Shown: piece by piece, positions 28,959-42,006 of the stretch
Layout of the letters: every line of letters starts with the position of its first letter
Numbering within the stretch: position 1 is the stretch's first letter
NCBI GenBank assembly: GCA_015059155.1
Contig: SVAX01000001.1
Span: 90,247 to 154,246 of the forward strand
Direction: 5' to 3'
DNA from: Bacillota bacterium
GTDB taxonomy: Bacteria; Bacillota_I; Bacilli_A; RF39; UBA660
DNA: 64,000 nt
Program-made: the position numbers and the translations under genes
Notes under the pieces: generated by a model
What the model was told of the DNA's origin: nothing
Database searches by the model: none
The model's input: only the letters and a program-made list of their open reading frames with translations

Positions 28959-30227
28959 CTATTTTTTAAAATTATTTAGTATTTTATTCAACCAATTACT
29001 TATTCTAACTCTATTAATATAAGTTAATATTCCTAATGCTACTATAGCAATTAATGATATTAAACTTTTCAAAAATGTTGGTTCATTGCTTTTTGAACTA
29101 TTAGAATTAACTAATTTTACTGTACTTTTAATAACATTGTATTTAGAATCTTCTTTTGTAGTTGTATATCCTGATTTAAGATATTCGGTTGGATTTGACG
29201 AATATTCTCCTCCACTTATAAATCCACTATGTATATCTTTAAATGAATCAGAGAAAGAAAATACTTCTTTTCCATTATTACTTACAAAATTGCCACCTGA
29301 TATACTCATTGAATATATTAAACTTTGGTTTCCTCTTCCTATGTATTCATATAGTACATTACTATTTTCACTAATAAAATTTCCCCTACTTATATCTATT
29401 TCAATTTTACCTTTATACCCATTGTTAGATTCTATTTGAATTGCAGTACCACTTGCTTTTATTCCATTGTTATAACCTTCTGTAGGAGTTTTATCTTCTC
29501 CATTACCTATTACTGTAGCCCCATTTATTATTAATTTTCCAGACTTTATTCCTATACCAGATTCTACTCCTTCTATATATGCATCACCTATATAAAAAGT
29601 AGAATACCCAGCTATATAAAGTCCATTCCCAGTTGATTTAATTAAAGCATCATCACTTATACTAACTACAGGATGAGCTTCTTCATCTTTTATATTACCA
29701 TTTACATATATACCTATTCCAGTTCCGCCATTAACATCATTAACTGCATTTATTTTGCCATCTAAATAAACATTAACACCATAAGATTTAGAATTTTCAT
29801 GATTAATAAAAATTCCTGACCAACCTTCTAAAGTTACATCTTTACCTACATGAACACTACTATATTTATCATTAGTAACTTCACTACTTCCTACTAACAT
29901 AATAGCTCCATAGTTAGGACTTGTTTCTTTTATCGTTCCATTACCACTTATATCTAAAAATCCACCTTTTATCATAAATACTTTTTCAGGAGCTGTTATA
30001 TCATTTCCATTAAGATTTATATTAACTTCTTTATTAATGGTTAAAGTATCTTCTAATACTACATCAGAAACTAACATAATAGTATCAGCACTAGATGCAT
30101 TTAAAATAGCCTCTTCTAAAGAATCATAATACTTATTTCCTATTTTAGCCATAGGAGTTATACTTGCACTAACAAACATTGGTAACATAAAAATACCTAT
30201 TAAACTAAATATTATTTTTTTATACAT
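28959..30227 (-). CDS. Surface protein with right-handed beta-helix-like repeats and a C-terminal TM anchor
   Basis: Signal peptide, G/N/I-rich repeats (GNG..I...G) and a C-terminal hydrophobic helix followed by a basic tail. Confidence 0.5.
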   Translation of the reverse strand: MYKKIIFSLIGIFMLPMFVSASITPMAKIGNKYYDSLEEAILNASSADTIMLVSDVVLEDTLTINKEVNINLNGNDITAPEKVFMIKGGFLDISGNGTIKETSPNYGAIMLVGSSEVTNDKYSSVHVGKDVTLEGWSGIFINHENSKSYGVNVYLDGKINAVNDVNGGTGIGIYVNGNIKDEEAHPVVSISDDALIKSTGNGLYIAGYSTFYIGDAYIEGVESGIGIKSGKLIINGATVIGNGEDKTPTEGYNNGIKASGTAIQIESNNGYKGKIEIDISRGNFISENSNVLYEYIGRGNQSLIYSMSISGGNFVSNNGKEVFSFSDSFKDIHSGFISGGEYSSNPTEYLKSGYTTTKEDSKYNVIKSTVKLVNSNSSKSNEPTFLKSLISLIAIVALGILTYINRVRISNWLNKILNNFKK

Positions 30228-30504
30228 ATTCCACCTCATTAAATCTTATTCATTTAAATAATTTGTAAAACGAAATTAATAAGTTTTATATATTGTTATA
30301 TAAATTTATTTTATCTTCATAAGTTAATTTTGACATATAAAAAACACGTTTATATGTACAAGAAACGTGGTTAATATTAATATTTACAATCCTTCTTTTA
30401 AAGAATTCTTCCATTATTTTTATTTGCTGATAGGATTTCTTTTTATACAATCTGTGTATTTTTTATTAGTATTTTATGTAGCGCCATTAACACATTATTT
30501 ATTT

Positions 30505-30909
30505 TCATTTAATTTTACTATTCGTTTTCATCTCTATTACATATTCTGCTAAAGGTATATCTGCTTGAGCTAATTCATAGTTTAATAACTCATTTTTATT
30601 TACCCATGCAATTTCAGAATGATCATGTAATTTAAATTCTCCACTAACATAATCACAACTATATAATCTTAAATCAACAATTTTAGTTGGATATTCACAT
30701 ACATTGTTAACAATAAATTTTTTAACTTTAATTTCTAATTCAAATTCTTCTAAAATTTCTCTTTCTATTGCATGTATTTCATCCTCGTTTAATTCTACTT
30801 TCCCTCCTGGAAATTCCCATTTTCCCAATACATTAGGGTCACCAGTAGATCGTTTTGCGATTAAAACTTTATCCTCTTTTTCTATTAGTGCAGCTACAAC
30901 TTTAATCAT
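30505..30909 (-). CDS. NUDIX hydrolase (MutT-like)
   Basis: Nudix box GKWEFPGGKVELNEDEIHAIEREILEEFELEI. Confidence 0.8.
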   Translation of the reverse strand: MIKVVAALIEKEDKVLIAKRSTGDPNVLGKWEFPGGKVELNEDEIHAIEREILEEFELEIKVKKFIVNNVCEYPTKIVDLRLYSCDYVSGEFKLHDHSEIAWVNKNELLNYELAQADIPLAEYVIEMKTNSKIK

Positions 30910-31111
30910 TAAAATCACCTGATTAAATTATAACATACTTTTAAGTCAAACTCTACACACGAACTAAAATAGAACTATATAACTTTTTTCTTAGTTTAAA
31001 ATAATTTATTAAAAAATCACTGCATATGTAATTTACATAACCGCATCTTTTCTTATTTAAAATCATAATTAACTTTATAAATGCTTAATTAAGGTAAAAA
31101 GAGAATTTTGA

Positions 31112-31124
31112 TCTCTTCAGGGGG
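31112..31124. repeat. Candidate attL core (TCTCTTCAGGGGG)
   Basis: Identical 13-mer to 49470-49482. On the minus strand it reads CCCCCTGAAGAGA followed by the weak terminator AGAGA-TCAAAAT-TCTCT-TTTT, interpreted as the displaced original 3' end of the target sRNA. Confidence 0.45.
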
Positions 31125-31329
31125 CACTTCCTTTTTATTAGAAAAGTTAGCAAAATGTCATTTTTTTAACAAAACAAATTTGGTCTTATAAAAAACATGT
31201 TTTGCCTTATATTTAAAGAATATCAGCACCTAAGTAGAGACCTAAATTTTTTATTGAAATTTAGTTATAATTATCTACTATATATGTCATTTATGACATT
31301 TTAGGTACCAAATATTTAATAAAAAAGAG

Positions 31330-32685
31330 CTATTTATTTAATTGCTCTTTCTTAGTTATTGTTCCAATTTTTTCAGTTACTTTTTTCTTACTATTTGTTC
31401 TAACTGATTTAATACTATCCTCATTTTTAAAAGCCATTTCTGCTCTTTTTACATATGTTATAAAATTTCCTTTATTACCACCACTATTTTTTTTGTTTTC
31501 TCCTTGTAATGAAAACTTATTATATATATCCTTAATAGTAATTCCGTTTTTACCTTTTATATATTTTTTTATCTTTCTAGTCATTTTATAATAATATTTT
31601 GACATCGTTTTACTTCTAATTGTTATTTTTGAACCATCAAAAGAAAATCCTAAAAAATTAATTATATTTGGAACATTTTCTGTCATAAATATTTCATTAT
31701 TTAAGCATTCTATTCTGCTCTCTTTATATCGATATATATTTGTTTTTTTCTCTTCCAAACTTATTTGTTTAGCTTCATTAACATTACTTTGTATTTTTTG
31801 ATATATTTGTTGTATTTTTTCATTATCATTGTTATCTAATACTAAAATGAAATCATCGGAATATCTTAAATATAAACCGTTATTCGCCATTGCGAGTTCA
31901 TTCATTTCTTTATCAAATTCAATCATGTAAATATTCGCTAATAATCCACTAAGCGGAGAGCCTTGAACTATTCCATAACTATTTTTATTTTCTTTTAGAT
32001 ATTTTTCATTTGTTTTTGTATTATTACCATTTATAAATTTCTTAAACTCATCAATGCTCATCAGAGTATCTAATTTTCTCATATAATATTTTTCAGATCT
32101 TTTATTATTCTTTACAGTGTAATAATCATATAAATCTTCAATATTAACATATTTAAATTTTGTTAAACTTTTAAATACTTTATATAGATTATCATCTATT
32201 TTAGAATTTAAAATTTTCTCTATTCTATTTTTTAATTTCTTATGATCTAAATTATCAAAAAATTTAGTAAAATCTCCTATGATAACAACTGCTTCTTCTT
32301 TTTCTTTTATAAATTCAAAAACTTCATGAGAAAAATCTATATTGCATTTTCCTCTTTCTATTCTATAAGCACCACTACATCTATCAATATCATTTTTAAC
32401 CATATATTCATTATATTTTAATCCAAGGATATGGGCATAATGTTGATAAATATATCTATCCATGTGTGCGCAATAATATATTTCTCTTTTTTTAGGTTCT
32501 TTTTTTGCATATACTTTATTATTAACTGTTTCTAATTTTTTTGATTCAATACTATAATGGATAAACGGAAAAAAGCCATGCTCTTTTATTGTATCATCAC
32601 ATTTTAGCAATCTCTTTGCCTTTTTTATACTCATTTTTTTATCAAAATGTGCATACCTTTTATACTTCAAATATTCCTTCCCCAT
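31330..32685 (-). CDS. Stand-alone reverse transcriptase (UG/Abi/DRT-like, family unassigned)
   Basis: RT motifs IIGDFTKFFDNLDH (A), GIVQGSPLSGLLANIYM (B), YLRYSDDFILV (C) and NFLGFSF (E). The upstream motif REIYYCAHMDRYIYQHYAHIL is also present. ATG at 32685 has a GGGGG SD 5 nt upstream. The track's TTG start at 32730 lies inside a hairpin and is unlikely. Confidence 0.85.
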   Translation of the reverse strand: MGKEYLKYKRYAHFDKKMSIKKAKRLLKCDDTIKEHGFFPFIHYSIESKKLETVNNKVYAKKEPKKREIYYCAHMDRYIYQHYAHILGLKYNEYMVKNDIDRCSGAYRIERGKCNIDFSHEVFEFIKEKEEAVVIIGDFTKFFDNLDHKKLKNRIEKILNSKIDDNLYKVFKSLTKFKYVNIEDLYDYYTVKNNKRSEKYYMRKLDTLMSIDEFKKFINGNNTKTNEKYLKENKNSYGIVQGSPLSGLLANIYMIEFDKEMNELAMANNGLYLRYSDDFILVLDNNDNEKIQQIYQKIQSNVNEAKQISLEEKKTNIYRYKESRIECLNNEIFMTENVPNIINFLGFSFDGSKITIRSKTMSKYYYKMTRKIKKYIKGKNGITIKDIYNKFSLQGENKKNSGGNKGNFITYVKRAEMAFKNEDSIKSVRTNSKKKVTEKIGTITKKEQLNK

Positions 32686-32695
32686 ACTTTCCCCC

Positions 32696-32746
32696 AAAAA
32701 AATGTAAGATACCCACCAAGATTGCAGCAATCTTTAACGGTGGGTA
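32696..32746 (-). promoter_or_regulatory. GC-rich composite hairpin plus U7 tract immediately 5' of the RT start codon
   Basis: RT-sense sequence is UACCCACC-GUUA-AAGAUUGC-U-GCAAUCUU-GGUGGGUA (32710-32746), then UCUUACA, U7 (32696-32702) and GGGGG (SD). The function is unknown; it could be an attenuator, a ncRNA 3' module or an RT-binding stem. Confidence 0.5.
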
Positions 32747-32892
32747 CACTACGGTTCAAAACAATAATTTCTACTAAGTTCATTATTTCAAACAAATATA
32801 ACGCTGCGCCTCCTATTATACATATAGTGTATAATAATAATATAAGAATAATAATATTCTACTATTACTATACCAATCTAAGGGAGGTCAAT

Positions 32893-33015
32893 ATGCAATA
32901 TCAATTAACATTTGTAATAAATATAACATATGTCTTAGACTGTCTTGTCTTTCTCATATTAATATTTATGAAAATTATCAATAAATACTTGACAAGATTA
33001 ATTAATCACCTTTAA
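32893..33015 (+). CDS. Candidate 40-aa hydrophobic peptide (type I toxin-like), antisense to the RT 5' arm
   Basis: SD AGGGAGGT (32881-32888), 4-nt spacer, ATG. Sequence MQYQLTFVINITYVLDCLVFLILIFMKIINKYLTRLINHL has one TM-like helix and a basic tail. Confidence 0.35.
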   Translation: MQYQLTFVINITYVLDCLVFLILIFMKIINKYLTRLINHL

Positions 33016-33174
33016 ACCTAATCGCTTAAAGTACTATATATTATATATTTTTTAGTGTTTTTTTACAATATTTTGCCGCTTTTTTCTATAATTTTTAATA
33101 TAAAATTTTAAATTTCTTGACTTTTTTCTTATAATAAGTGATTAATACAATACCTTTTGAAAGGAGGTATTTAT

Positions 33175-33435
33175 GTGAAAGCTAAAGAAATATTAAATAT
33201 ATTAGCTACTCCTTGGTGTTCTAATCAAGATATTATGAAAATTGTTAATGTATCCTCTTCTACTGCTAGTAAAATTAAAAGATGTATTGAAATTGAATTT
33301 AGAAAGAAGTATCCAGACAAGTTTATGCCTGCACATTGTGTTCCAACTAAGGATGTAATTAAATACTTTGATATTGATATTGAATTTCTAAAGAGCTTAG
33401 CCTCTATTGATTTAGATGATATTGATAAAAAATAA
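33175..33435 (+). CDS. Small excisionase/MerR-like HTH protein (86 aa)
   Basis: GTG start 7 nt after AAGGAGG; the track's TTG start at 33157 contains that RBS. ILNILATPWCSNQDIMKIVNVSSSTASKIKRCIE looks like a winged HTH of the Xis/AlpA type (inference). Confidence 0.45.
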   Translation: MKAKEILNILATPWCSNQDIMKIVNVSSSTASKIKRCIEIEFRKKYPDKFMPAHCVPTKDVIKYFDIDIEFLKSLASIDLDDIDKK

Positions 33436-33455
33436 AAGTCCAGGACTTCCTGAAC

Positions 33456-34346
33456 TTATTTCTTATTTACAATTAAGGATTGCTTAATTAAAGGAATAAC
33501 GTTATCTATATCTTTTTCAGAATCAATCATTACCCAATAATCACCATTGCCCCAATGTCCTACTGTACTTATATCTCTTGTTATATTTAAAGGATCTTCT
33601 AAAGTTCCTTTTTTCATGTTTATATATACTCTTATTTCATTCTTCTTAAATGCTATATCTATTATGTTTGTTGCACCTTTAAATGCTATATACATTTTTT
33701 TGACTTCAATATCTATATCATCTAATTGTAATACTCTTTCTTTTAGAATTTCATATAATCTTTTAACTTCATCAGACACATTAGAAAAATGGTCATCCTC
33801 TGTATATACTTTTATTTCTTTAGTTACTGATGCACTGTTATCAATTTTTACTTCTTCTATTTTTACATTACTTGTTTTTTGTATATGTTCTATATCAACT
33901 ATATTATCTTCATATCTTGTAACTTTATATAAGTCTACTGGTATATTTTTAAAATCTGTTGCATTAAGTTGATAAGATGTGAATACTGGAGATACAAATA
34001 TTATTCTTGATTGGCTCCAATCAACATCATTTATATTTATATATTTATTTAATTTCAAATTATATTGAAGAACAAAATCAGCTTTTCTTTCTAATAACAA
34101 TTTTAAATATGTATATCCTTGATCTACTAAACTATGATTTTTAACATTTTTATATTCAATTATCTTAAATGAATTAGTTTCTTCATCAAATGCAACTGTA
34201 TCTAATCTAAAGCTTCCAACCACGAATTCAGTTGCAACAAATTCTAAACCAAGTATTTCTTTTAAATGTTCTTCAAAATAAGTTTGAAGTTCTTTTTCAT
34301 TAACAAAATCTTTTTCTTTTAACTTTTCATTATTTTTTAATATCAT
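33456..34346 (-). CDS. PD-(D/E)xK (NucS/DUF91-like) nuclease domain fused to a DUF5655-like C-terminal domain
   Basis: N-terminal half: E..LQ..FEEHLKEILGLEFVATEFVVGSFRLDTVAFDEETNSFKIIEYK..........QGYTYL. C-terminal half: MYIAFKG...IDIAF.....RVYINMK...EDP...RDIS.VGHWGNGDYWV. Domain names are from memory. Confidence 0.5.
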   Translation of the reverse strand: MILKNNEKLKEKDFVNEKELQTYFEEHLKEILGLEFVATEFVVGSFRLDTVAFDEETNSFKIIEYKNVKNHSLVDQGYTYLKLLLERKADFVLQYNLKLNKYININDVDWSQSRIIFVSPVFTSYQLNATDFKNIPVDLYKVTRYEDNIVDIEHIQKTSNVKIEEVKIDNSASVTKEIKVYTEDDHFSNVSDEVKRLYEILKERVLQLDDIDIEVKKMYIAFKGATNIIDIAFKKNEIRVYINMKKGTLEDPLNITRDISTVGHWGNGDYWVMIDSEKDIDNVIPLIKQSLIVNKK

Positions 34347-34463
34347 TTTTATCACCAAAGTACTTCCTTCAATTACAATTATAACATAAATTATTATGAT
34401 TTTTATTTAGACTAATGTGATTCTAACAATTTGCGTAATAAAAAATCTAGATTTCTCTAGATT

Positions 34464-35186
34464 TTAACACATTTTATTATCATTAAGTATTTTATTCAAG
34501 GAATTATAATATTGCTCCCATTTAGGACAATAATAATCCATCAGTTCTCTAAAATGATCATTATGTTTTTTTTCGATCAAATGTAATAATTCATGTATAA
34601 TAACATATTTTATTTCTGAATCATTCTTTTTAGCTAAATCAACATTAAATATTAATGATTTCTTTTCACTATTACAACTACCCCATTTATTTTTCATTTT
34701 TCTAATACTATACCCTTCACTTTTAACTTCTATTAAATTTTCTAATTCAGGCAAGTATTTATTAATTTTAATAGATAATTGTTCTTTATAGAAAGAATTC
34801 ATAAGTTTTTCTTTATTTTCAACACTTGATGATTTTCTCACATACATAACTAATGATTTAGTATTTTCTATTTTTACAGAAGGTGCATTTGAATCAACAA
34901 CTTTTAATAGGTATCTTTTACCATTTAAGTAATGATCCTCACCTGATATGTATCTTCTTTTTGTTAATCGTATTTGCTCTTCATATTTTTTTAATCTTTC
35001 TTTTATCCATTCTTCTTTTGATATAACCATTCTTTTAATGGTCGCTATCTCCATTTTTTCTGGAACTGAAGCCTTAATTTGTAAATTAGGATAAACACGC
35101 AAATTTATATTTTTAACTTTTTTTCTTTGTATATCTACATTAAAACCATTAATAAGCATATTTAATATCCTCTTGTATTTTTCCAT
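34464..35186 (-). CDS. M48/DUF45 (YgjP-like) zinc metallopeptidase associated with the type I R-M operon
   Basis: HELLH motif (VIIHELLHLIEKKHNDHF). It abuts or overlaps the hsdR stop. The true start is possibly MLINGF at 35159. Confidence 0.7.
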   Translation of the reverse strand: MEKYKRILNMLINGFNVDIQRKKVKNINLRVYPNLQIKASVPEKMEIATIKRMVISKEEWIKERLKKYEEQIRLTKRRYISGEDHYLNGKRYLLKVVDSNAPSVKIENTKSLVMYVRKSSSVENKEKLMNSFYKEQLSIKINKYLPELENLIEVKSEGYSIRKMKNKWGSCNSEKKSLIFNVDLAKKNDSEIKYVIIHELLHLIEKKHNDHFRELMDYYCPKWEQYYNSLNKILNDNKMC

Positions 35187-38100
35187 AAATTAAAAATTTC
35201 ATCTATCTTGGATTCATCATTAACAATGGTTTTTATTAAAAATTTTACTTCCCTTTGCTTCATTTTAGAATCCATAAAATCCTTTGGCACAGAACTTATC
35301 AATGCATCGTACAATAATAGAGTGTCTTCTTCATTTTTATCTAAAACGTCATATAATCCTCTTAATCTTACATTATGTATTGATGATGGATATTCTCCAC
35401 TTGTTTCAGGATTTTTAACTTTCATAACAAGATCAACTAAATGTTTTATATAATCTTGATAATCTAAATTTTGATCTTTTTTCATATCGATTAATTCTTT
35501 TAGTAATTCAGACATTTTATTATAATATCTAGGATTTATTGGTGTATTGTTAATAATTGTTGAAGCAATGTTTGCCTCAATAGCTAAAGCAACAGACTTT
35601 TTATTCTTTCTAACATTATTTGGTAATGTTTGTGTTGCCTTTTCTATTCCGCTTGCAACTATTACATCCAACAAAGTGGCCTCATCCAACTTATATTGTA
35701 GTTCTGATGCATCAGCATTTATATAATTATCAATCATATATCTCATAGCACCATCATAATTTTTTAATTCAATATAATCTCCTGCAGCCTTCATAACTTC
35801 ATCTCGTGCTGAATTATAAAAATCAACTTGTTCTTTGATAGATTTACTAGCTTCTTTTGTGTAACCGGCTTTTGTCATTTCATCAGCAATATTTGTATAT
35901 GCAATAACTAAATTAGATACAGCATTATAAAATTCAATTCTTTTGCTTTCTGTAGCTTTTAATTGTTCTTCACGAGATTCGTCTATACTCAATTCTTGAC
36001 CAACAAAATGATGCAAAAATTCAAGAGTACCTTTTGGCTCATCAATTGGTTCACAAATAACTTTTACTTGTTTTAATGCATTATCAAGTCTACTCTTGCA
36101 AAATTCCAATCTATTTTTTAATAATCCTGTAATATCTTCTTTTTCAAAATTATCAAATGCACCTGAGGTATAATCCTCAACAGCTCCTTCTATACTTTCA
36201 AACAAGTCCTTATAATCAACAATGTATCCTAAATCTTTATCCTTATCCAATCTATTAACGCGACATATTGCTTGGAACAACCCATGATCTTGCATCTTTT
36301 TATCAATATATAGATATGTTGCAGATGGTGCATCAAATCCTGTTAATAACCTATCAACAACTATTAACAATTTCATTTCTGATGGAACATTTATAAACTT
36401 ATAAATCGCATCATCTTCAAAACAACTTGAATGTTCGTCATGTTCCGAATCACTTCTAAGTTTTGGATATTTAGCTTTGTTCCACATTTTTTCATAAACA
36501 TCATATATTTTTTGTTTATCAGATAATGTAAATTCTCCTGTAGATTCACCTTTTATATCTGCGATATATGGTGAATAAGATGAAACTATTGCACATTTAG
36601 TAAATCCTTTTGCTTGAAATATTTCCCAATATCTACAAGCTTCATATATTGAACTAGCAACAAGTATCGCCGTTCCTTTCCCTTCTGCCAATCTTGATAT
36701 TTTTTCAAAATCAAAAATTATATCTTTTACGATTTCTTCTAATCTAGATTCAGAACTTGTTATATTTTGTAAAGTTCCCCATCTTTCTTTTAGTTTTTGT
36801 TTAGCAAATTCATTTAATCCTTCTGTTTTACTTTCAAACCATTCATCAATCTTTGCTGGATTATTTATTCTTTGTTCTACATTTCTAGATTCATAACATA
36901 AATCAACAACAATCCTATCTTTTACAGCTTGGTCAAATTTATAGGTGTGAATATATTTACCAAATTTTTCTAATGTTGTTGCTTTATTTTTCTTCATTAA
37001 TGGCGTTCCTGTAAAACCAATAAATGTTGCATCAGGTAACAATCTTTTCATTTCATCATGTAACATTCCTGCTTGACTACGATGGCACTCATCAACAAAA
37101 ACAAATATATTTCCTTTAGCTTTAAAATCATTATTTTTATATGCATTTAATTGTTTAATATAATCTGCATAGTCTTTATCGGAATCTTCATCTACTGATG
37201 CCCCAACCTTATGTATTAATGAGCATATTAAGTTACCACTACTGTAATCATTTAGAGATTCAAGCAAATTACTACAACTTGTAGCTCTATGTATCTTGGT
37301 TTCTCCAGTATTAACAAATACATCTTTTATTTGTTTATCCAATTCTTTTCTATCTGTAAATATTACTACCCTTGAATCATCTACATTAGATAATATCCAT
37401 TTTGCCAATAATACCATTGACAAAGATTTTCCTGATCCTTGAGTATGCCAAATGATACCGCCTTCATTTCTTTGAACAAATTCTCTAGCATTTGTTACAC
37501 CAAAATATTGATTATATCTTGGCACCTTTTTAATTCCACTATCAAATAAAATGAAATTATCAATTAAATCTATTAATCTCTCTTTTTCAAATAATGAAGG
37601 TATTTGTTGATCTATTAGAAAATCACTTGTATCTATTAATCTTTTCACTTTTTCATGTAATTTTCCTACGGCATGTATATCTTCAATCCATGGTAAATAA
37701 TATTTTGCTGGAGTTTTTGTTGTCGCATATTTTAATCCTTCTGTATCATTTCCAGCAACTAATAATTGAACTGTTGTAAAGAATCTTTCTATAAATCTAG
37801 GATCTTGATTATCTAAGTTTTGTCTAATTCCTTCATTTATAGAGACAGTACTTCTTTTTAATTCGATAACCGCTAAAGCAATACCATTTATATATACAAC
37901 TATATCTGGTCTTTTTTCATTTTGTCCTTTTACAGTTACCTCTTCAGCTACGTAGAAATCATTGTTGGAAAAATCATTATAATCAATAAAGTATACCTTT
38001 TCATCTTTTTCGCCAACATATAATGATATTCCTTTTCCATACTTTAATATTTCATAAAACTCTTTATTAACCTCGTATAAAGATTTTGATTCATTATGAG

Positions 38101-38308
38101 CAATCTTCTTTAATTCGGCAATTGCTTTTTTTGATATTTCTTCTGAATATTTTTTTGTTAAAAATTTAAGTAATAAATCTTCTTCAATATTCGAATTGTT
38201 TTCTCTATCTTCATAATTACCTAGATAGGTATATTCCAACTTTTTTTCAAATACTTCATGCAATATTCGTTCTTGAGTTTTTATTTCTTTTTCATTAACT
38301 CCACTCAT
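35162..38308 (-). CDS. hsdR: Type I restriction endonuclease subunit R
   Basis: N-terminal PD-(D/E)xK (PDIVVYINGIALAVIELK), helicase motif I HTQGSGKS, motif II FVFVDECHRSQ and FIGFTGTP. The likely start MSGVNE follows AAGGAG. Confidence 0.9.
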   Translation of the reverse strand: MSGVNEKEIKTQERILHEVFEKKLEYTYLGNYEDRENNSNIEEDLLLKFLTKKYSEEISKKAIAELKKIAHNESKSLYEVNKEFYEILKYGKGISLYVGEKDEKVYFIDYNDFSNNDFYVAEEVTVKGQNEKRPDIVVYINGIALAVIELKRSTVSINEGIRQNLDNQDPRFIERFFTTVQLLVAGNDTEGLKYATTKTPAKYYLPWIEDIHAVGKLHEKVKRLIDTSDFLIDQQIPSLFEKERLIDLIDNFILFDSGIKKVPRYNQYFGVTNAREFVQRNEGGIIWHTQGSGKSLSMVLLAKWILSNVDDSRVVIFTDRKELDKQIKDVFVNTGETKIHRATSCSNLLESLNDYSSGNLICSLIHKVGASVDEDSDKDYADYIKQLNAYKNNDFKAKGNIFVFVDECHRSQAGMLHDEMKRLLPDATFIGFTGTPLMKKNKATTLEKFGKYIHTYKFDQAVKDRIVVDLCYESRNVEQRINNPAKIDEWFESKTEGLNEFAKQKLKERWGTLQNITSSESRLEEIVKDIIFDFEKISRLAEGKGTAILVASSIYEACRYWEIFQAKGFTKCAIVSSYSPYIADIKGESTGEFTLSDKQKIYDVYEKMWNKAKYPKLRSDSEHDEHSSCFEDDAIYKFINVPSEMKLLIVVDRLLTGFDAPSATYLYIDKKMQDHGLFQAICRVNRLDKDKDLGYIVDYKDLFESIEGAVEDYTSGAFDNFEKEDITGLLKNRLEFCKSRLDNALKQVKVICEPIDEPKGTLEFLHHFVGQELSIDESREEQLKATESKRIEFYNAVSNLVIAYTNIADEMTKAGYTKEASKSIKEQVDFYNSARDEVMKAAGDYIELKNYDGAMRYMIDNYINADASELQYKLDEATLLDVIVASGIEKATQTLPNNVRKNKKSVALAIEANIASTIINNTPINPRYYNKMSELLKELIDMKKDQNLDYQDYIKHLVDLVMKVKNPETSGEYPSSIHNVRLRGLYDVLDKNEEDTLLLYDALISSVPKDFMDSKMKQREVKFLIKTIVNDESKIDEIFNLWKNTRGY

Positions 38309-38321
38309 AAGAATCTCCTTC

Positions 38322-39557
38322 CTATACAAACATATCATTTAATAATGATTGCTTAATTTTATTTAATTTATCGTGCTTACGTTGATGAAGAGTGATAAGG
38401 TTATCTATACTTATAAATAGTTGAGATATTATTTTTTGTTCTTCTAATGTTGGAATCATTAGATCTTCTTTTTTTACTGCATTATATTGCAAATGTACTA
38501 TTGTTAAACCTTGTGCTTGTTTTGCAAATGAATGCTTTACAGGTATAAAATTATTAATATAATATGATATAAAATTTCCATCTATATTTTTATAAGGCCT
38601 AATTCCAAACAAATCCCCGCCAACCATTATATTTTCTTGATTAATGCATGATGGAGCGATAAGAGAAACACTATCTACAGTAGTTGATGTGGGAAATAAA
38701 ATATCATTAACCTCAGTTTTAGTTGCTTCTCTATTTGTTCTAGATTTAACGTTAAAAATTCTTTCATTAAATTTAGTATATAGATCACCATATAGAACAC
38801 ATTTATACTTTCCATCTTCAATTAAATCAGCATATCCTAAAGTTCTTGTTGAAAAATTATCACCTATTTCTTCTAACTTACGTTGTTCCCAATCATCAGT
38901 AAATCCTTTAAATCTAATTTCAGGAATAACTGAATTATTTTGAGGGAACATTTTTTCCAATAAAGACTTTTTTAGTTCTATAAGTTTATCATACTTACGT
39001 TGATGAAGAGTGATAAGGTTATCTAAACTATCTAACATAGTACCTATTTTATGTGCCTCTGTATCCTCTGGATAAGATATTTCAAAGTTACTTACTTGTT
39101 CTAATGATAGATTTGGCTGTGCTCCAATAGTTGGATTTTTCTTTATAAAATCAGATATAGCCTTACCCTTTAAGAACGTTTTAATATAATTTAAATCACA
39201 TTCTTTCAATCTTATTATTGCTAAAGCTTGATTGGTATTAGCAGGTAAAATTTCTTTATTTATAAGGCTCACACGGCCTAGTGTCCCTGCAATAGAAAAT
39301 AATAAATCGTTTTCTTTTAATTGAGATCTTCTTAAATATCCATTATGTTCTTCTTCAGTTATTTTTGTAGTTGATTCAATAAGTCCGGTACTTGGATTAA
39401 TATTTTCTATTTTAATAAAATTAATATCTCCATTTCCAGATTTATCTAAAGGAGTTGTTCCTTTTGTGATAATTGATGTAATATCTTTTAACTTACGTTG
39501 TTCCCAATCATCAGTAAATCCTTTGAATCTAATTTTTGGCTTTAATTCATTATTCAT
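38322..39557 (-). CDS. hsdS: Type I R-M specificity subunit S (two target-recognition domains)
   Basis: Duplicated conserved regions IRFKGFTDDWEQRKL (twice) and LITLHQRK(Y/H)DKL (twice) flank two divergent TRDs. Confidence 0.9.
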   Translation of the reverse strand: MNNELKPKIRFKGFTDDWEQRKLKDITSIITKGTTPLDKSGNGDINFIKIENINPSTGLIESTTKITEEEHNGYLRRSQLKENDLLFSIAGTLGRVSLINKEILPANTNQALAIIRLKECDLNYIKTFLKGKAISDFIKKNPTIGAQPNLSLEQVSNFEISYPEDTEAHKIGTMLDSLDNLITLHQRKYDKLIELKKSLLEKMFPQNNSVIPEIRFKGFTDDWEQRKLEEIGDNFSTRTLGYADLIEDGKYKCVLYGDLYTKFNERIFNVKSRTNREATKTEVNDILFPTSTTVDSVSLIAPSCINQENIMVGGDLFGIRPYKNIDGNFISYYINNFIPVKHSFAKQAQGLTIVHLQYNAVKKEDLMIPTLEEQKIISQLFISIDNLITLHQRKHDKLNKIKQSLLNDMFV

Positions 39558-42006
39558 TGGCATCACCACCAAGTTGATTAATGAATTCGCTGAATGCTTT
39601 TAAGTCATCATCATCTCCGACTAAATCTTTTAATAATGAAGATAGTTCTTTTTCTTTTTCTTCTATTTCATTATTTAAATCTGTAAGAGTTGATTCATAT
39701 TCATCATCTAAATTTGTAATACCGTTTGCTAAGTTGTTAATTAAATTACTCATGCAAGTATTAAATTTATTTTCTATAGATTCAAACCATTTATCATAAA
39801 CTATGATATTTTTACTTTCTTCTTCAGTTAAAGAATTATATTTTTTAATAACTTTATCATTTAATAATTCTTGTTTATCTTTTATTTTTTTCTTTAATTC
39901 TTTTTGTTCAGATAAGTTATTTAATAAATTGTTAATTAATTCTATATCCTTATCCTCTACTTCTTTTTTCAAATCTTTTAATGCTTTTTCATTAACCTTT
40001 TCGTCATCATTAAATAATTGTTCATCACCTGTATTTTCTTCAACAATACCATCAAAATCAGATATTAAATTATTTAACTTATTATTTAATTCATTAATTT
40101 CATTATTTTCATTTTTAAAATATTTGTTTATAACAATATCTTTTGGTAACAATTCAGAATCAAATTCATTTTTCTTTATATTACCTTTTTTATCTTTAGC
40201 AAATGTTAATGATGGAATCCATCCATTATCAGTTACCATATATAAATCATCTTTAAATGTTTCTTCATAATATTTCATCAGATATTCATAAGCATCATAT
40301 TTATTAATTAAAATATCATCATTAAATATTTCTAATAGTTTATCTGATATTGTTTCAATTAATTCTTTTACTCTTATAGTATTGTCTAAGTTCAATAATT
40401 TGTCTTCAATATCTTTTTCCCATGATTTAATTCTTGTTCTAACTGTTTCAAAATAATCATTTATTTCATTAGATTGTTTTATTATTTCAGATATATTATC
40501 TTTATCAACATTTAAATTGTAATAACCTTTTTTAGAATTATTTGAGAATAACTCATTCTTTAAATTAGGAGCTACTTTCCAATAATTATCAAATCCATTA
40601 ACATCTATCACAGGAATTCCGCCTAACAAATGAGCTTTTAAATCTGGTTTCATTTCTTCAACAGATGCATCAACATATCTAGGAATATTTAAGTTATACT
40701 CTTCCGCTTCAATATCTTCTATCGGAATGTTCTTAGAATATTTATCTTCTTCTATCCTTCCAGTATATATATCTATTATTTTCTTTATATCTTGTTCTCT
40801 TAATTTATTTTTATTACCATCTTTAACAAAATTCTTGCTTGCATCAATAATAAATACATTTTTTCTATAAGGCGCATCCTTCTTATCTAGTACAATAATA
40901 CATGCAGGAATTCCTGTTCCATAGAATAAGTTAGCAGGCAATCCAATAATTCCTTCAATATATCCTTTTTTTATAAGATTTGTTCTTATAAGTTCTTCTT
41001 GTCCACCTCTAAATAAAACCCCGTGAGGTAATATTATTGCAGCTCTACCATGATCTGGATCCATAGATTTTAACATATGCAATAAGAAAGCATAATCTGC
41101 ACATCCTTCTGGTGGCATACCAAATCCAGTAAATCTATCATATGTCTCTTCTAAGTCTGTACTCCATTTTTTTACCGAGAAAGGAGGATTCGCTACACAA
41201 AAGTCAAATGTCATAAGTCTTCCATTTTCTAAAAGTTGAGGATTAGTTAAAGTATTACCGTTTGTAATTCTTGCTGTTTCATTCCCATGTAAAAACATAT
41301 TCATAACACAAAGTCCAGTTGTATTAGCATCTTTTTCTTGCCCATATAAACGAGCAATTTTTCCCTTACCAACTTCTGCGCCTGCTTTTAACAATAACGA
41401 TCCTGAACCACAAGTCATATCGTATATAAGGACATTTTTATCTGTATCATTTTTCTTGAAACTTGAAATATTTAAAATTTTTGCCATAATTCTAGAAACT
41501 TCAGATGGAGTATAAAATTGACCTTTACTCTTTCCGGCTTCACTAGCAAATTTCTTCATTAAGTATTCATAAGCATCACCAAGAATATCATCATCATCAG
41601 CTCTATTATTACTAAAATCCAAATCTTTATCTTGGAATATTTCGATTAGTCCAGTTAATGCATCTACCATATCCTTGCCTTTTCCAAGCTTATTTTCATC
41701 ATTAAAATCTACAACGTCTATAATGCCTTGTAGGTCATTCTCTTCTGCAATTTTAGCTAATATTGTATTAAATTCTTCTCCTATATTCTTCTTACCTTTT
41801 AAAGATATCATTGTATTAAAATTGGCATCATTAGGAACTTCAATTAATGAATTTTCTTTTCCATAATATTTATCAGTAATAACTTTCATAAATAAAACGA
41901 TTAACACATAATCCTTATATTGTGTAGCATCCATTCCACCCTTACTTCTTAACGTATTACAACTATCCCATAATTTACTATATAATGAACTTTTTTTAAC
42001 AGCCAT
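39550..42006 (-). CDS. hsdM: Type I R-M methyltransferase subunit M with a ~300 aa coiled-coil C-terminal extension
   Basis: HsdM_N region, AdoMet motif YDMTCGSGSLL and catalytic NPPF (CVANPPFSVKKW). The C-terminal third is E/K/N/L-rich. Confidence 0.9.
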   Translation of the reverse strand: MAVKKSSLYSKLWDSCNTLRSKGGMDATQYKDYVLIVLFMKVITDKYYGKENSLIEVPNDANFNTMISLKGKKNIGEEFNTILAKIAEENDLQGIIDVVDFNDENKLGKGKDMVDALTGLIEIFQDKDLDFSNNRADDDDILGDAYEYLMKKFASEAGKSKGQFYTPSEVSRIMAKILNISSFKKNDTDKNVLIYDMTCGSGSLLLKAGAEVGKGKIARLYGQEKDANTTGLCVMNMFLHGNETARITNGNTLTNPQLLENGRLMTFDFCVANPPFSVKKWSTDLEETYDRFTGFGMPPEGCADYAFLLHMLKSMDPDHGRAAIILPHGVLFRGGQEELIRTNLIKKGYIEGIIGLPANLFYGTGIPACIIVLDKKDAPYRKNVFIIDASKNFVKDGNKNKLREQDIKKIIDIYTGRIEEDKYSKNIPIEDIEAEEYNLNIPRYVDASVEEMKPDLKAHLLGGIPVIDVNGFDNYWKVAPNLKNELFSNNSKKGYYNLNVDKDNISEIIKQSNEINDYFETVRTRIKSWEKDIEDKLLNLDNTIRVKELIETISDKLLEIFNDDILINKYDAYEYLMKYYEETFKDDLYMVTDNGWIPSLTFAKDKKGNIKKNEFDSELLPKDIVINKYFKNENNEINELNNKLNNLISDFDGIVEENTGDEQLFNDDEKVNEKALKDLKKEVEDKDIELINNLLNNLSEQKELKKKIKDKQELLNDKVIKKYNSLTEEESKNIIVYDKWFESIENKFNTCMSNLINNLANGITNLDDEYESTLTDLNNEIEEKEKELSSLLKDLVGDDDDLKAFSEFINQLGGDANE

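Follow-up and report, generated by a model that had tools for sequence, protein, structure and literature searches.

A divergent DRT2-type reverse transcriptase locus with a predicted concatemer-encoded neo gene in a Bacillota bacterium

The closest described relative of the locus analysed here is the DRT2 anti-phage system of Klebsiella pneumoniae, whose reverse transcriptase (RT) binds a 281-nt RNA encoded just upstream of its gene and recopies a 120-nt template by a programmed jump, yielding concatemeric complementary DNA (cDNA) (PMC11100668, PMC12039810). Following infection the cDNA becomes double-stranded, a promoter arises at the repeat junction, and a stop-free gene, neo, is expressed from the strand opposite to the RNA, resulting in growth arrest (PMC11100668, PMC12039810). 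For more divergent DRT2 clades, which may differ from the prototype, the RNA is predictable, while Neo is harder to annotate (Tang et al., PMC11100668); only in relatives of the Klebsiella system was neo readily annotated (PMC11100668). Here we examined a 64,000-nt stretch of contig SVAX01000001.1 from a Bacillota bacterium (assembly GCA_015059155.1, contig positions 90,247 to 154,246; hereafter the window, with coordinates counted from its first letter), with focus on an RT gene on the minus strand and the DNA directly upstream of it. We consider this locus to be a complete and apparently intact DRT2 anti-phage system, with a probability of roughly 85%. As read from the DNA, it comprises an RT of the DRT2 family, a promoter followed by a structured 330-nt RNA and, on the opposite strand, a split promoter together with a ribosome-binding site and an ATG in a frame free of stops.

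31330..32685, minus strand: DRT2 (UG2) reverse transcriptase, 451 amino acids, catalytic YSDD intact; assigned through PADLOC, NCBIfam and PDB sequence matches

All four RT motifs that the original prediction quoted for this open reading frame (ORF), namely A, B, C (YSDD) and E, are present in the 451-residue translation, and RVT_1 was the sole Pfam family seen. Hidden Markov model (HMM) searches then separated the families clearly. The PADLOC Drt2 model PDLC03757 covered residues 7-445 with 416.5 bits (E 4.3e-125) and a second Drt2 score reached 283.6 bits, while the top non-Drt2 RT model stopped at 80 bits and RT_UG17 at 64 bits. Drt2 (NF041746) also ranked first in NCBIfam. A group II intron RT was rejected (group_II_RT_mat, 86.5 bits against an NCBIfam cutoff of 300), as was a retron RT (St85, 50.3 bits against 235), and diversity-generating retroelements and the other UG/DRT families were discarded on their HMM scores; the RT thus does not belong with group II intron, retron or diversity-generating elements, which would have refuted the original prediction, non-Drt2 RT models being at 80 bits or less in PADLOC. 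Among solved structures, the Klebsiella pneumoniae DRT2 (KpnDRT2) RT 9c0i gave the best sequence match (E 7.8e-46, RT residues 7-426, almost end to end), the same sequence being carried by five more PDB entries, and relatives of the window RT at 33-37% identity are annotated as Drt2 by NCBI. Since the Lys-rich C-terminal stretch of about 100 residues aligns with the KpnDRT2 thumb region up to residue 426, we count it as the thumb of the enzyme rather than as the additional tail initially described. By sequence, the RT is therefore a divergent but clear DRT2 member. The family, regarded as unassignable by eye, can be assigned with HMM tools, and proves to be one of the two analogies that the original prediction had named; neither does the label of an uncharacterised module apply, as the DRT2 mechanism was worked out in 2024 (PMC11100668, PMC12039810). 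The ATG start of the gene is preceded by a ribosome-binding site, GGGGGAAAG, and alignments of homologues begin at the same Met. The alternative TTG at 32730 was discarded as a start, since the longer ORF would reach into a conserved terminal hairpin of the upstream RNA and the homologues start at the ATG.

32703..33032, minus strand: DRT2 non-coding RNA of 330 nt, consisting of 5' handle, template and 3' scaffold; supported by a 14-sequence alignment, covariation and the folding-energy z-score
33040..33068, minus strand: promoter of the non-coding RNA (TTGTAA, 17 nt, TATAAT); top promoter-like site of the region, 10/12 matches
32820..33002, minus strand: predicted rolling-circle RT template of 183 nt, ends placed to within a few nt; its plus strand would be one neo repeat of 61 codons

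To assess the upstream arm, relatives of the RT were collected, giving 16 fetched loci (L numbers; some are duplicate places) with RTs 48-95% identical to that of the window, 14 of which were analysed in detail. The closest, L001, belongs to a Bacilli metagenome-assembled genome from roe deer caecum and has an RT 95% identical to ours. Mean column identity in the RNA alignment amounts to 83% over 14 sequences, above that of the RT proteins, which have drifted to 48-70%. The conserved stretch spans from the promoter to the ribosome-binding site of the RT, with unrelated sequence flanking the loci; the -35 (ATTG) and -10 (TATAAT) hexamers of the promoter are kept, and the sequence further upstream diverges. 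The RNA gene is hence, on sequence grounds, placed directly upstream of the RT gene and equipped with its own promoter. Outside the close subfamily, an nhmmer search with the RNA alignment found L128 and L058 only, and in an Rfam scan of 30000-34500 the sole RT-relevant match was a weak one to RT-6, nothing attaining its gathering score. As for the structured 5' arm of about 470 bp proposed at the outset, it indeed lacks a convincing same-strand ORF (32686-33156 holds just a 42-residue TTG ORF), while the functional RNA is confined to 330 nt (33032-32703). The proposal of a single-gene defence RT with a structured 5' RNA is borne out by the Drt2 score and by an arm that is strongly conserved, with covariation, in the homologous loci.

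33010..33031, minus strand: 5' handle hairpin CUUUAAG...CUUAAAG; 8 pairs, 2 compensated (U-A to C-G in 3 loci)
32809..32813 with 32887-32883, minus strand: long-range pseudoknot-type helix between GGAGG just 3' of the template and CCUCC inside it; covariation
32757..32790, minus strand: 'tower'-like hairpin of the 3' scaffold, 34 nt; 9 pairs, 6 compensated (helix 8)
32703..32747, minus strand: terminal GC-rich hairpin GUACCCACC...GGUGGGUAU with tail CUUACA; 16 pairs, 3 compensated, 98-99% paired (helices 10-11)

Folding analysis is congruent with a functional RNA. The minimum free energy (MFE) of the window RNA lies at z = -4.74 relative to dinucleotide shuffles, and the consensus fold is common to the MFE fold of the window sequence itself. 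In the consensus structure 95.6% of cells are paired, as opposed to 37-50% with slid partners, and 20 pairs display compensatory change against 6-9 in the slid controls; neither value was reached in any of 500 shuffles. Many conserved G-U pairs are moreover compatible with the RT-sense strand alone. The handle is the hairpin of the Rfam RT-6 motif, judged by sequence. Four helices lie within the template, and the long-range helix (helix 6) links its interior to the stretch just 3' of it: CCUCC/GGAGG in the window, L001 and L170 is replaced by CCCUC/GAGGG in the other 12 loci, with double changes in two pairs and the match never broken. By analogy, the 34-nt hairpin would be equivalent to the 34-nt tower of KpnDRT2 (PMC12039810). 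The GC-rich terminal hairpin proper (32747-32709) corresponds to the structured element that was originally noticed upstream of the RT, and it is followed by a tail, UAUCUUACA, close to invariant across the aligned RNAs. CUUACA is likely the 3' end of the RNA, and could, if the KpnDRT2 precedent is carried over, act as self-primer. Separately, an invariant GCAGC (32803-32807, minus strand) just 3' of GGAGG is complementary to GCUGC, likewise invariant, in the tip of the terminal hairpin (32719-32733). A pairing of the two may correspond to the scaffold pseudoknot of Klebsiella; both motifs are invariant, which makes covariation uninformative.

32830..32835, plus strand: neo -10 box TATAAT (within invariant TGTATAAT), in-frame Tyr-Asn; invariant in 15 loci
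32989..32994, plus strand: neo -35 box TTGACA (invariant TTGACAAG, 32989-32996); invariant in 15 loci
32880-32887, plus strand: neo ribosome-binding site AAGGGAGG, followed by a 5-nt spacer and ATG at 32893-32895; Shine-Dalgarno sequence and in-frame ATG in 15/15 loci

The opposite strand, the features of which had escaped the original prediction (split promoter, ribosome-binding site and long stop-free frame), is the most telling part of the locus. In the linear DNA there is no -35 element upstream of the neo -10 box, the invariant -35 box instead being found 159 nt downstream, a layout that is intelligible only for copies joined head to tail. Measured between hexamer starts, the distance from -10 to -35 box is 159, 156 or 153 nt in the 15 loci, each a multiple of three; with a junction spacer of 18 nt this gives repeats of 183, 180 and 177 nt, and the neo frame has no stop in any of the 15. 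For three head-to-tail copies of the window unit, 0 stops were counted in the neo frame versus 12 and 42 in the other two, the range for the other frames across loci being 12-48. A stop-free circular frame appeared in just 0.55% of dinucleotide shuffles of the window unit, and in 0.1-1.1% for ten other lineages.

The pattern of insertions and deletions points in the same direction. Relative to the window, the net change inside the template is 0, -3 or -6 nt in 13/13 homologues, including indels upstream of the ATG and compensated sets of +2/-1/-1 and -1/-2, while net changes of 1, 2, 3 and 4 nt are found outside the template, in the handle/linker and the 3' scaffold. This pattern locates the coding constraint in the template, the ends of which it confines to the interval from alignment column 27 to column 224. 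Within the subfamily much of the repeat is kept as protein (ITYVLDCL, IINKYLTRLIH), and the stretch upstream of the ATG is conserved as nucleotides, not as protein. Without joining, the plus-strand ORF would run for 40 codons, from the ATG at 32893 to a TAA at 33013, in a frame that is open from 32608 to 33012, the other frames being stopped each 30-40 nt. In the window and L001 this open frame extends 210 nt past the template (32608-32819), crossing the scaffold and reaching the beginning of the RT gene; we ascribe this extension to chance, probably, because the frame ends 25-79 nt before the -10 box in other loci. In L166 (1657-1857, minus strand) a public gene caller annotated the linear antisense ORF, of 66 amino acids, which represents the neo proto-gene there. 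Fragments of such proto-genes thus sit in protein databases as hypothetical proteins.

Where exactly the copies are joined was addressed by comparing promoter spacing, frame and microhomology. From the sequence, our best estimate of the window template is 32820-33002 and of the junction TTGACAAGATTAATACATATAGTGTATAAT, the exact nucleotide included. Joined repeats would then read TTGACA-AGATTAATACATATAGTG-TATAAT, with a spacer of 18 nt, the sole one found that keeps the frame across the junction along with a usable promoter and microhomology. In this register the cDNA-sense sequence after TTGACA (AGATTAAT...) recurs before the -10 box, over 8 nt in L170, 6 in L082, 5 in L171, 4 in L002, L081, L161 and L167, and 3 in L130. 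An in-frame TAA in L167 caps the template at 9 nt past the -35 box. Spacers of 15 and 21 nt were rejected, as the promoters were poor and the microhomology inconsistent, despite the frame being kept; a 17-nt spacer, giving an out-of-frame 182-nt period in the window, was likewise set aside and is weighed as a rival below. The microhomology, (T)AAT(ACAT) and 2-8 nt by locus, stands in place of the ACA triplets that flank the prototype template, and the ACA motif is a feature of the Klebsiella clade.

Transferred to this locus, the DRT2 mechanism would start with the RT engaging the RNA at its 5' handle and 3' scaffold and copying the template (about 33002 to 32820) into DNA. Repeated rounds would generate a head-to-tail concatemer of 183-nt units, to be turned double-stranded upon phage infection. 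Every junction would then form the complete TTGACA/TATAAT promoter, from which a transcript would arise bearing AAGGGAGG-N5-ATG and a never-stopping frame of 61 codons per repeat. The resulting repetitive, hydrophobic Neo protein would halt growth of the infected cell.

Several observations speak against this interpretation. The cDNA synthesis, transcription of the concatemer, Neo protein and phage defence would all be carried over from homology to Klebsiella DRT2, to whose RT the window RT has low identity, and the 344.7 bits of the top NCBIfam match (Drt2) fall short of the curated cutoff of 390. Furthermore, a search for ACA-type triplets flanking the template, as ACA-1 and ACA-2 of the prototype, retrieved none at the in-frame register, where microhomology is just 2 nt in the window, L168 and L169, while the out-of-frame 182-nt register matches 4 nt (TAAT) in the window. 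An 18-nt promoter spacer is also less favourable than one of 17 nt. Codon positions within the template carry a weak signal (variability of 0.165, 0.114 and 0.183 at positions 1, 2 and 3), and AlphaFold2 modelling of three Neo repeats without an alignment gave, at low confidence (predicted local distance difference test score, pLDDT, 60.6), one long helix and one strand per repeat. Finally, L167 (1655-1986) and L171 (1524-1851) carry compensated frameshifts, +2/-1/-1 and -1/-2, that rewrite 15-35 Neo residues, with the frame still stop-free and the length still a multiple of three; selection on a particular Neo fold is accordingly not evident. A further reading, unlikely in our view, is that the jump site in this Bacilli/Clostridia subfamily is set by RNA architecture rather than by an alignment triplet, and that neo is selected for an open frame only, not for a fold. 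The architecture would consist of the handle hairpin, which stands 7 nt ahead of the template, and the long-range CCUCC/GGAGG helix, by which the template interior is held to the 3' edge. Were selection confined to an open frame, the L167 and L171 frameshifts would point to toxicity arising from endless translation of any hydrophobic repeat.

One rival, improbable in our view, shares the concatemeric cDNA and attributes toxicity to non-stop translation as such (through stalling and exhaustion of rescue factors) or to any long hydrophobic repeat, rather than to a folded Neo. In its favour, L167 and L171 keep the frame open after having 15-35 residues rewritten, the codon-position signal is weak, conservation ahead of the ATG is of nucleotides, and across DRT2 clades predicted Neo repeats share little other than hydrophobicity and the Tyr-Asn imposed by TATAAT. 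However, helix-breaking prolines abolished the toxicity of Klebsiella Neo (PMC11100668), and the retention of ITYVLDCL and IINKYLTRLIH within the subfamily is conservation of protein.

About as improbable to us is a DRT2-like system that jumps via the 4-nt TAAT, with a 182-nt period and a 17-nt spacer, so that every junction would change the reading frame and the product would be a hydrophobic peptide of short, finite length. A 17-nt spacer is what most other DRT2 clades have, and here it comes with microhomology of 4 nt in the window, L001, L002 and L081 and of 3 nt in L134, L161 and L168; in L082, L130, L167, L170 and L171, however, this declines to 1-2 nt, the same loci offering 3-8 nt in the 18-nt register. 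The other two frames, moreover, have 4 and 14 stops per repeat, and across at least 4 independent indel histories, among them indels upstream of the ATG that a finite ORF would not constrain, the template has kept a length divisible by three. Least credible is an RT-independent antisense pair in the style of a type I toxin-antitoxin system, with a 40-residue hydrophobic plus-strand toxin (ATG 32893 to TAA 33013) repressed by the minus-strand RNA, for although the linear ORF has a good ribosome-binding site and a membrane-like peptide, and its equivalent was called as a gene in L166, the linear -10 box is without an upstream -35, the invariant -35 being found past the ORF start, the linear stop varies in position (15-105 nt past the -35 box), the constraint to multiples of three extends upstream of the ATG, and the RNA is always joined to a DRT2 RT, with its RT-6 handle common to other DRT2 clades. 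We therefore retain a complete DRT2 system with an in-frame 183-nt repeat as the preferred reading.

The neighbourhood of the system was also inspected:

33157-33435, plus strand: 92-residue ORF, divergent from the promoter of the non-coding RNA
33456-34358: PDC-S18/DUF5655 candidate defence gene, beside the RT
34464-35186: YgjP-like metallopeptidase gene, overlapping the end of hsdR
35162-38338, 38322-39572 and 39550-42006: Type I restriction-modification genes hsdR, hsdS and hsdM

The defence island that the original prediction described is real, with Type I restriction-modification genes and the PDC-S18 candidate adjoining, whereas the RT does not stand alone on its strand, as nearly all large ORFs of the window are on the minus strand, both neighbours included. 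Neither Pfam nor PADLOC gave a match for the 92-residue ORF, which is inherited together with the DRT2 cassette in L001 and absent from the other homologous loci. Window positions 31332-34396 correspond to L001 1281-4354, a 3.07-kb block of 94% identity that holds the RNA and the RT along with the PDC-S18/DUF5655 and 92-residue genes. Its boundary coincides exactly with the stop codon of the RT, and the flanks are unrelated. Because of this boundary, the flank at 31125-31329 is outside the shared cassette. In L001 the block comes after a Type I specificity-subunit gene, which suggests a cassette moving among restriction-modification-linked defence islands. Elsewhere, DRT2-like RTs of about 38% identity were seen in a Clostridioides difficile phage (CP103976.1, 53340-54359) and in gut phage contigs MT837010.1 and MT839204.1, and further ones on plasmids of Bacillus, Lactiplantibacillus and proteobacteria.

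DRT2 ranks among the oddest of immune mechanisms, its gene existing only after reverse transcription, and the present locus leaves the understanding of that mechanism unchanged. The value of the analysis instead lies in the finding that the design, with split promoter, ribosome-binding site, ATG and a stop-free repeat of a multiple of three, is recognisable in low-GC gut Firmicutes by sequence alone. This aids annotation, as gene callers miss such hidden genes, and it links the orphan Rfam families RT-6 and RT-12 to DRT2.

Compared with Klebsiella DRT2 (PDB 9C0I/9C0J), the overall plan is the same: an RNA of about 300 nt precedes a single RT gene, and one upstream promoter serves both; the RNA is made up of a hairpin handle at the 5' side, the template in the middle and a 3' scaffold that includes a hairpin the size of the roughly 34-nt tower; the neo promoter forms across the repeat junction only; and a ribosome-binding site and an ATG accompany a stop-free frame with a length divisible by three. 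As for differences, the window RT is distant (E 8e-46) and misses the NCBIfam cutoff. The repeat measures 183 nt (61 codons) rather than 120 nt (40 codons), the junction spacer 18 nt rather than 17 and the linear ORF 40 codons rather than 26, and microhomology on the cDNA strand reads (T)AAT(ACAT) instead of ACA/TGT.

All fetched loci were subjected to a generic scan that required a -35 box preceded by a -10 box, a junction spacer of 16-18 nt, a length divisible by three and a circular stop-free frame. As a positive control, the scan of proteobacterial DRT2 loci recovered the published geometry (PMC12039810), L046 yielding 120 nt, a 17-nt spacer, an end 6 nt past the -35 box and TGT microhomology. 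Predicted Neo repeats were hydrophobic in all scanned loci except L003, and most contain Tyr-Asn. TATAAT is translated in frame as this dipeptide in almost every DRT2 clade examined (LYNNN, WYNI, MVYNVS), implying that a promoter element imposes a conserved dipeptide on Neo. Other Firmicute DRT2 clades (L004, L010, L034 and L020; RTs 36-41% identical) resemble the window in having AT-rich hosts, perfect TTGACA/TATAAT junction promoters, in-frame stop-free hydrophobic Neo repeats with ribosome-binding site and ATG, an RT-6-type 5' handle and AAT/ATT-type rather than TGT microhomology. They differ in that their repeats are 123-153 nt and their spacers 17 nt, and the similarity of their RNAs to that of the window is barely detectable.

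RT-6 (RF03027) covers the first 75 nt of the window RNA, that is the handle hairpin and UUGUCAA, the complement of the neo -35 box, with 17.1 bits against a gathering score of 46.7, which makes the RNA a divergent relative and not a member by score; the motif reaches 20-25 bits at the same position in six close loci and 53.9 bits, above gathering, in the Clostridia DRT2 locus L004 (2655-2728). RT-12 (RF03016) matches the 3' scaffold of proteobacterial systems (L046 2706-2843, L054 2829-2963, L055 2868-2987), and the window scaffold, in contrast to these, is without a match to it. Rfam lists both as mere small RNA families, each spanning just a fragment of the whole RNA. Both lie directly upstream of DRT2 RT genes, and they appear to be pieces of DRT2 RNAs, RT-6 the 5' handle in Clostridia and RT-12 the 3' scaffold in proteobacteria.

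DRT9 and DRT10, other Class 2 UG RT systems, likewise combine a single RT with an adjacent structured non-coding RNA that templates repetitive DNA; unlike what is predicted for the window, they employ protein-primed synthesis of homopolymers or short tandem repeats and, in DRT10, a SLATT effector. Aggregated, the comparison places the locus within a kind of system already known, what is new being its parameters only: a 183-nt repeat, an 18-nt spacer and AAT-type microhomology.

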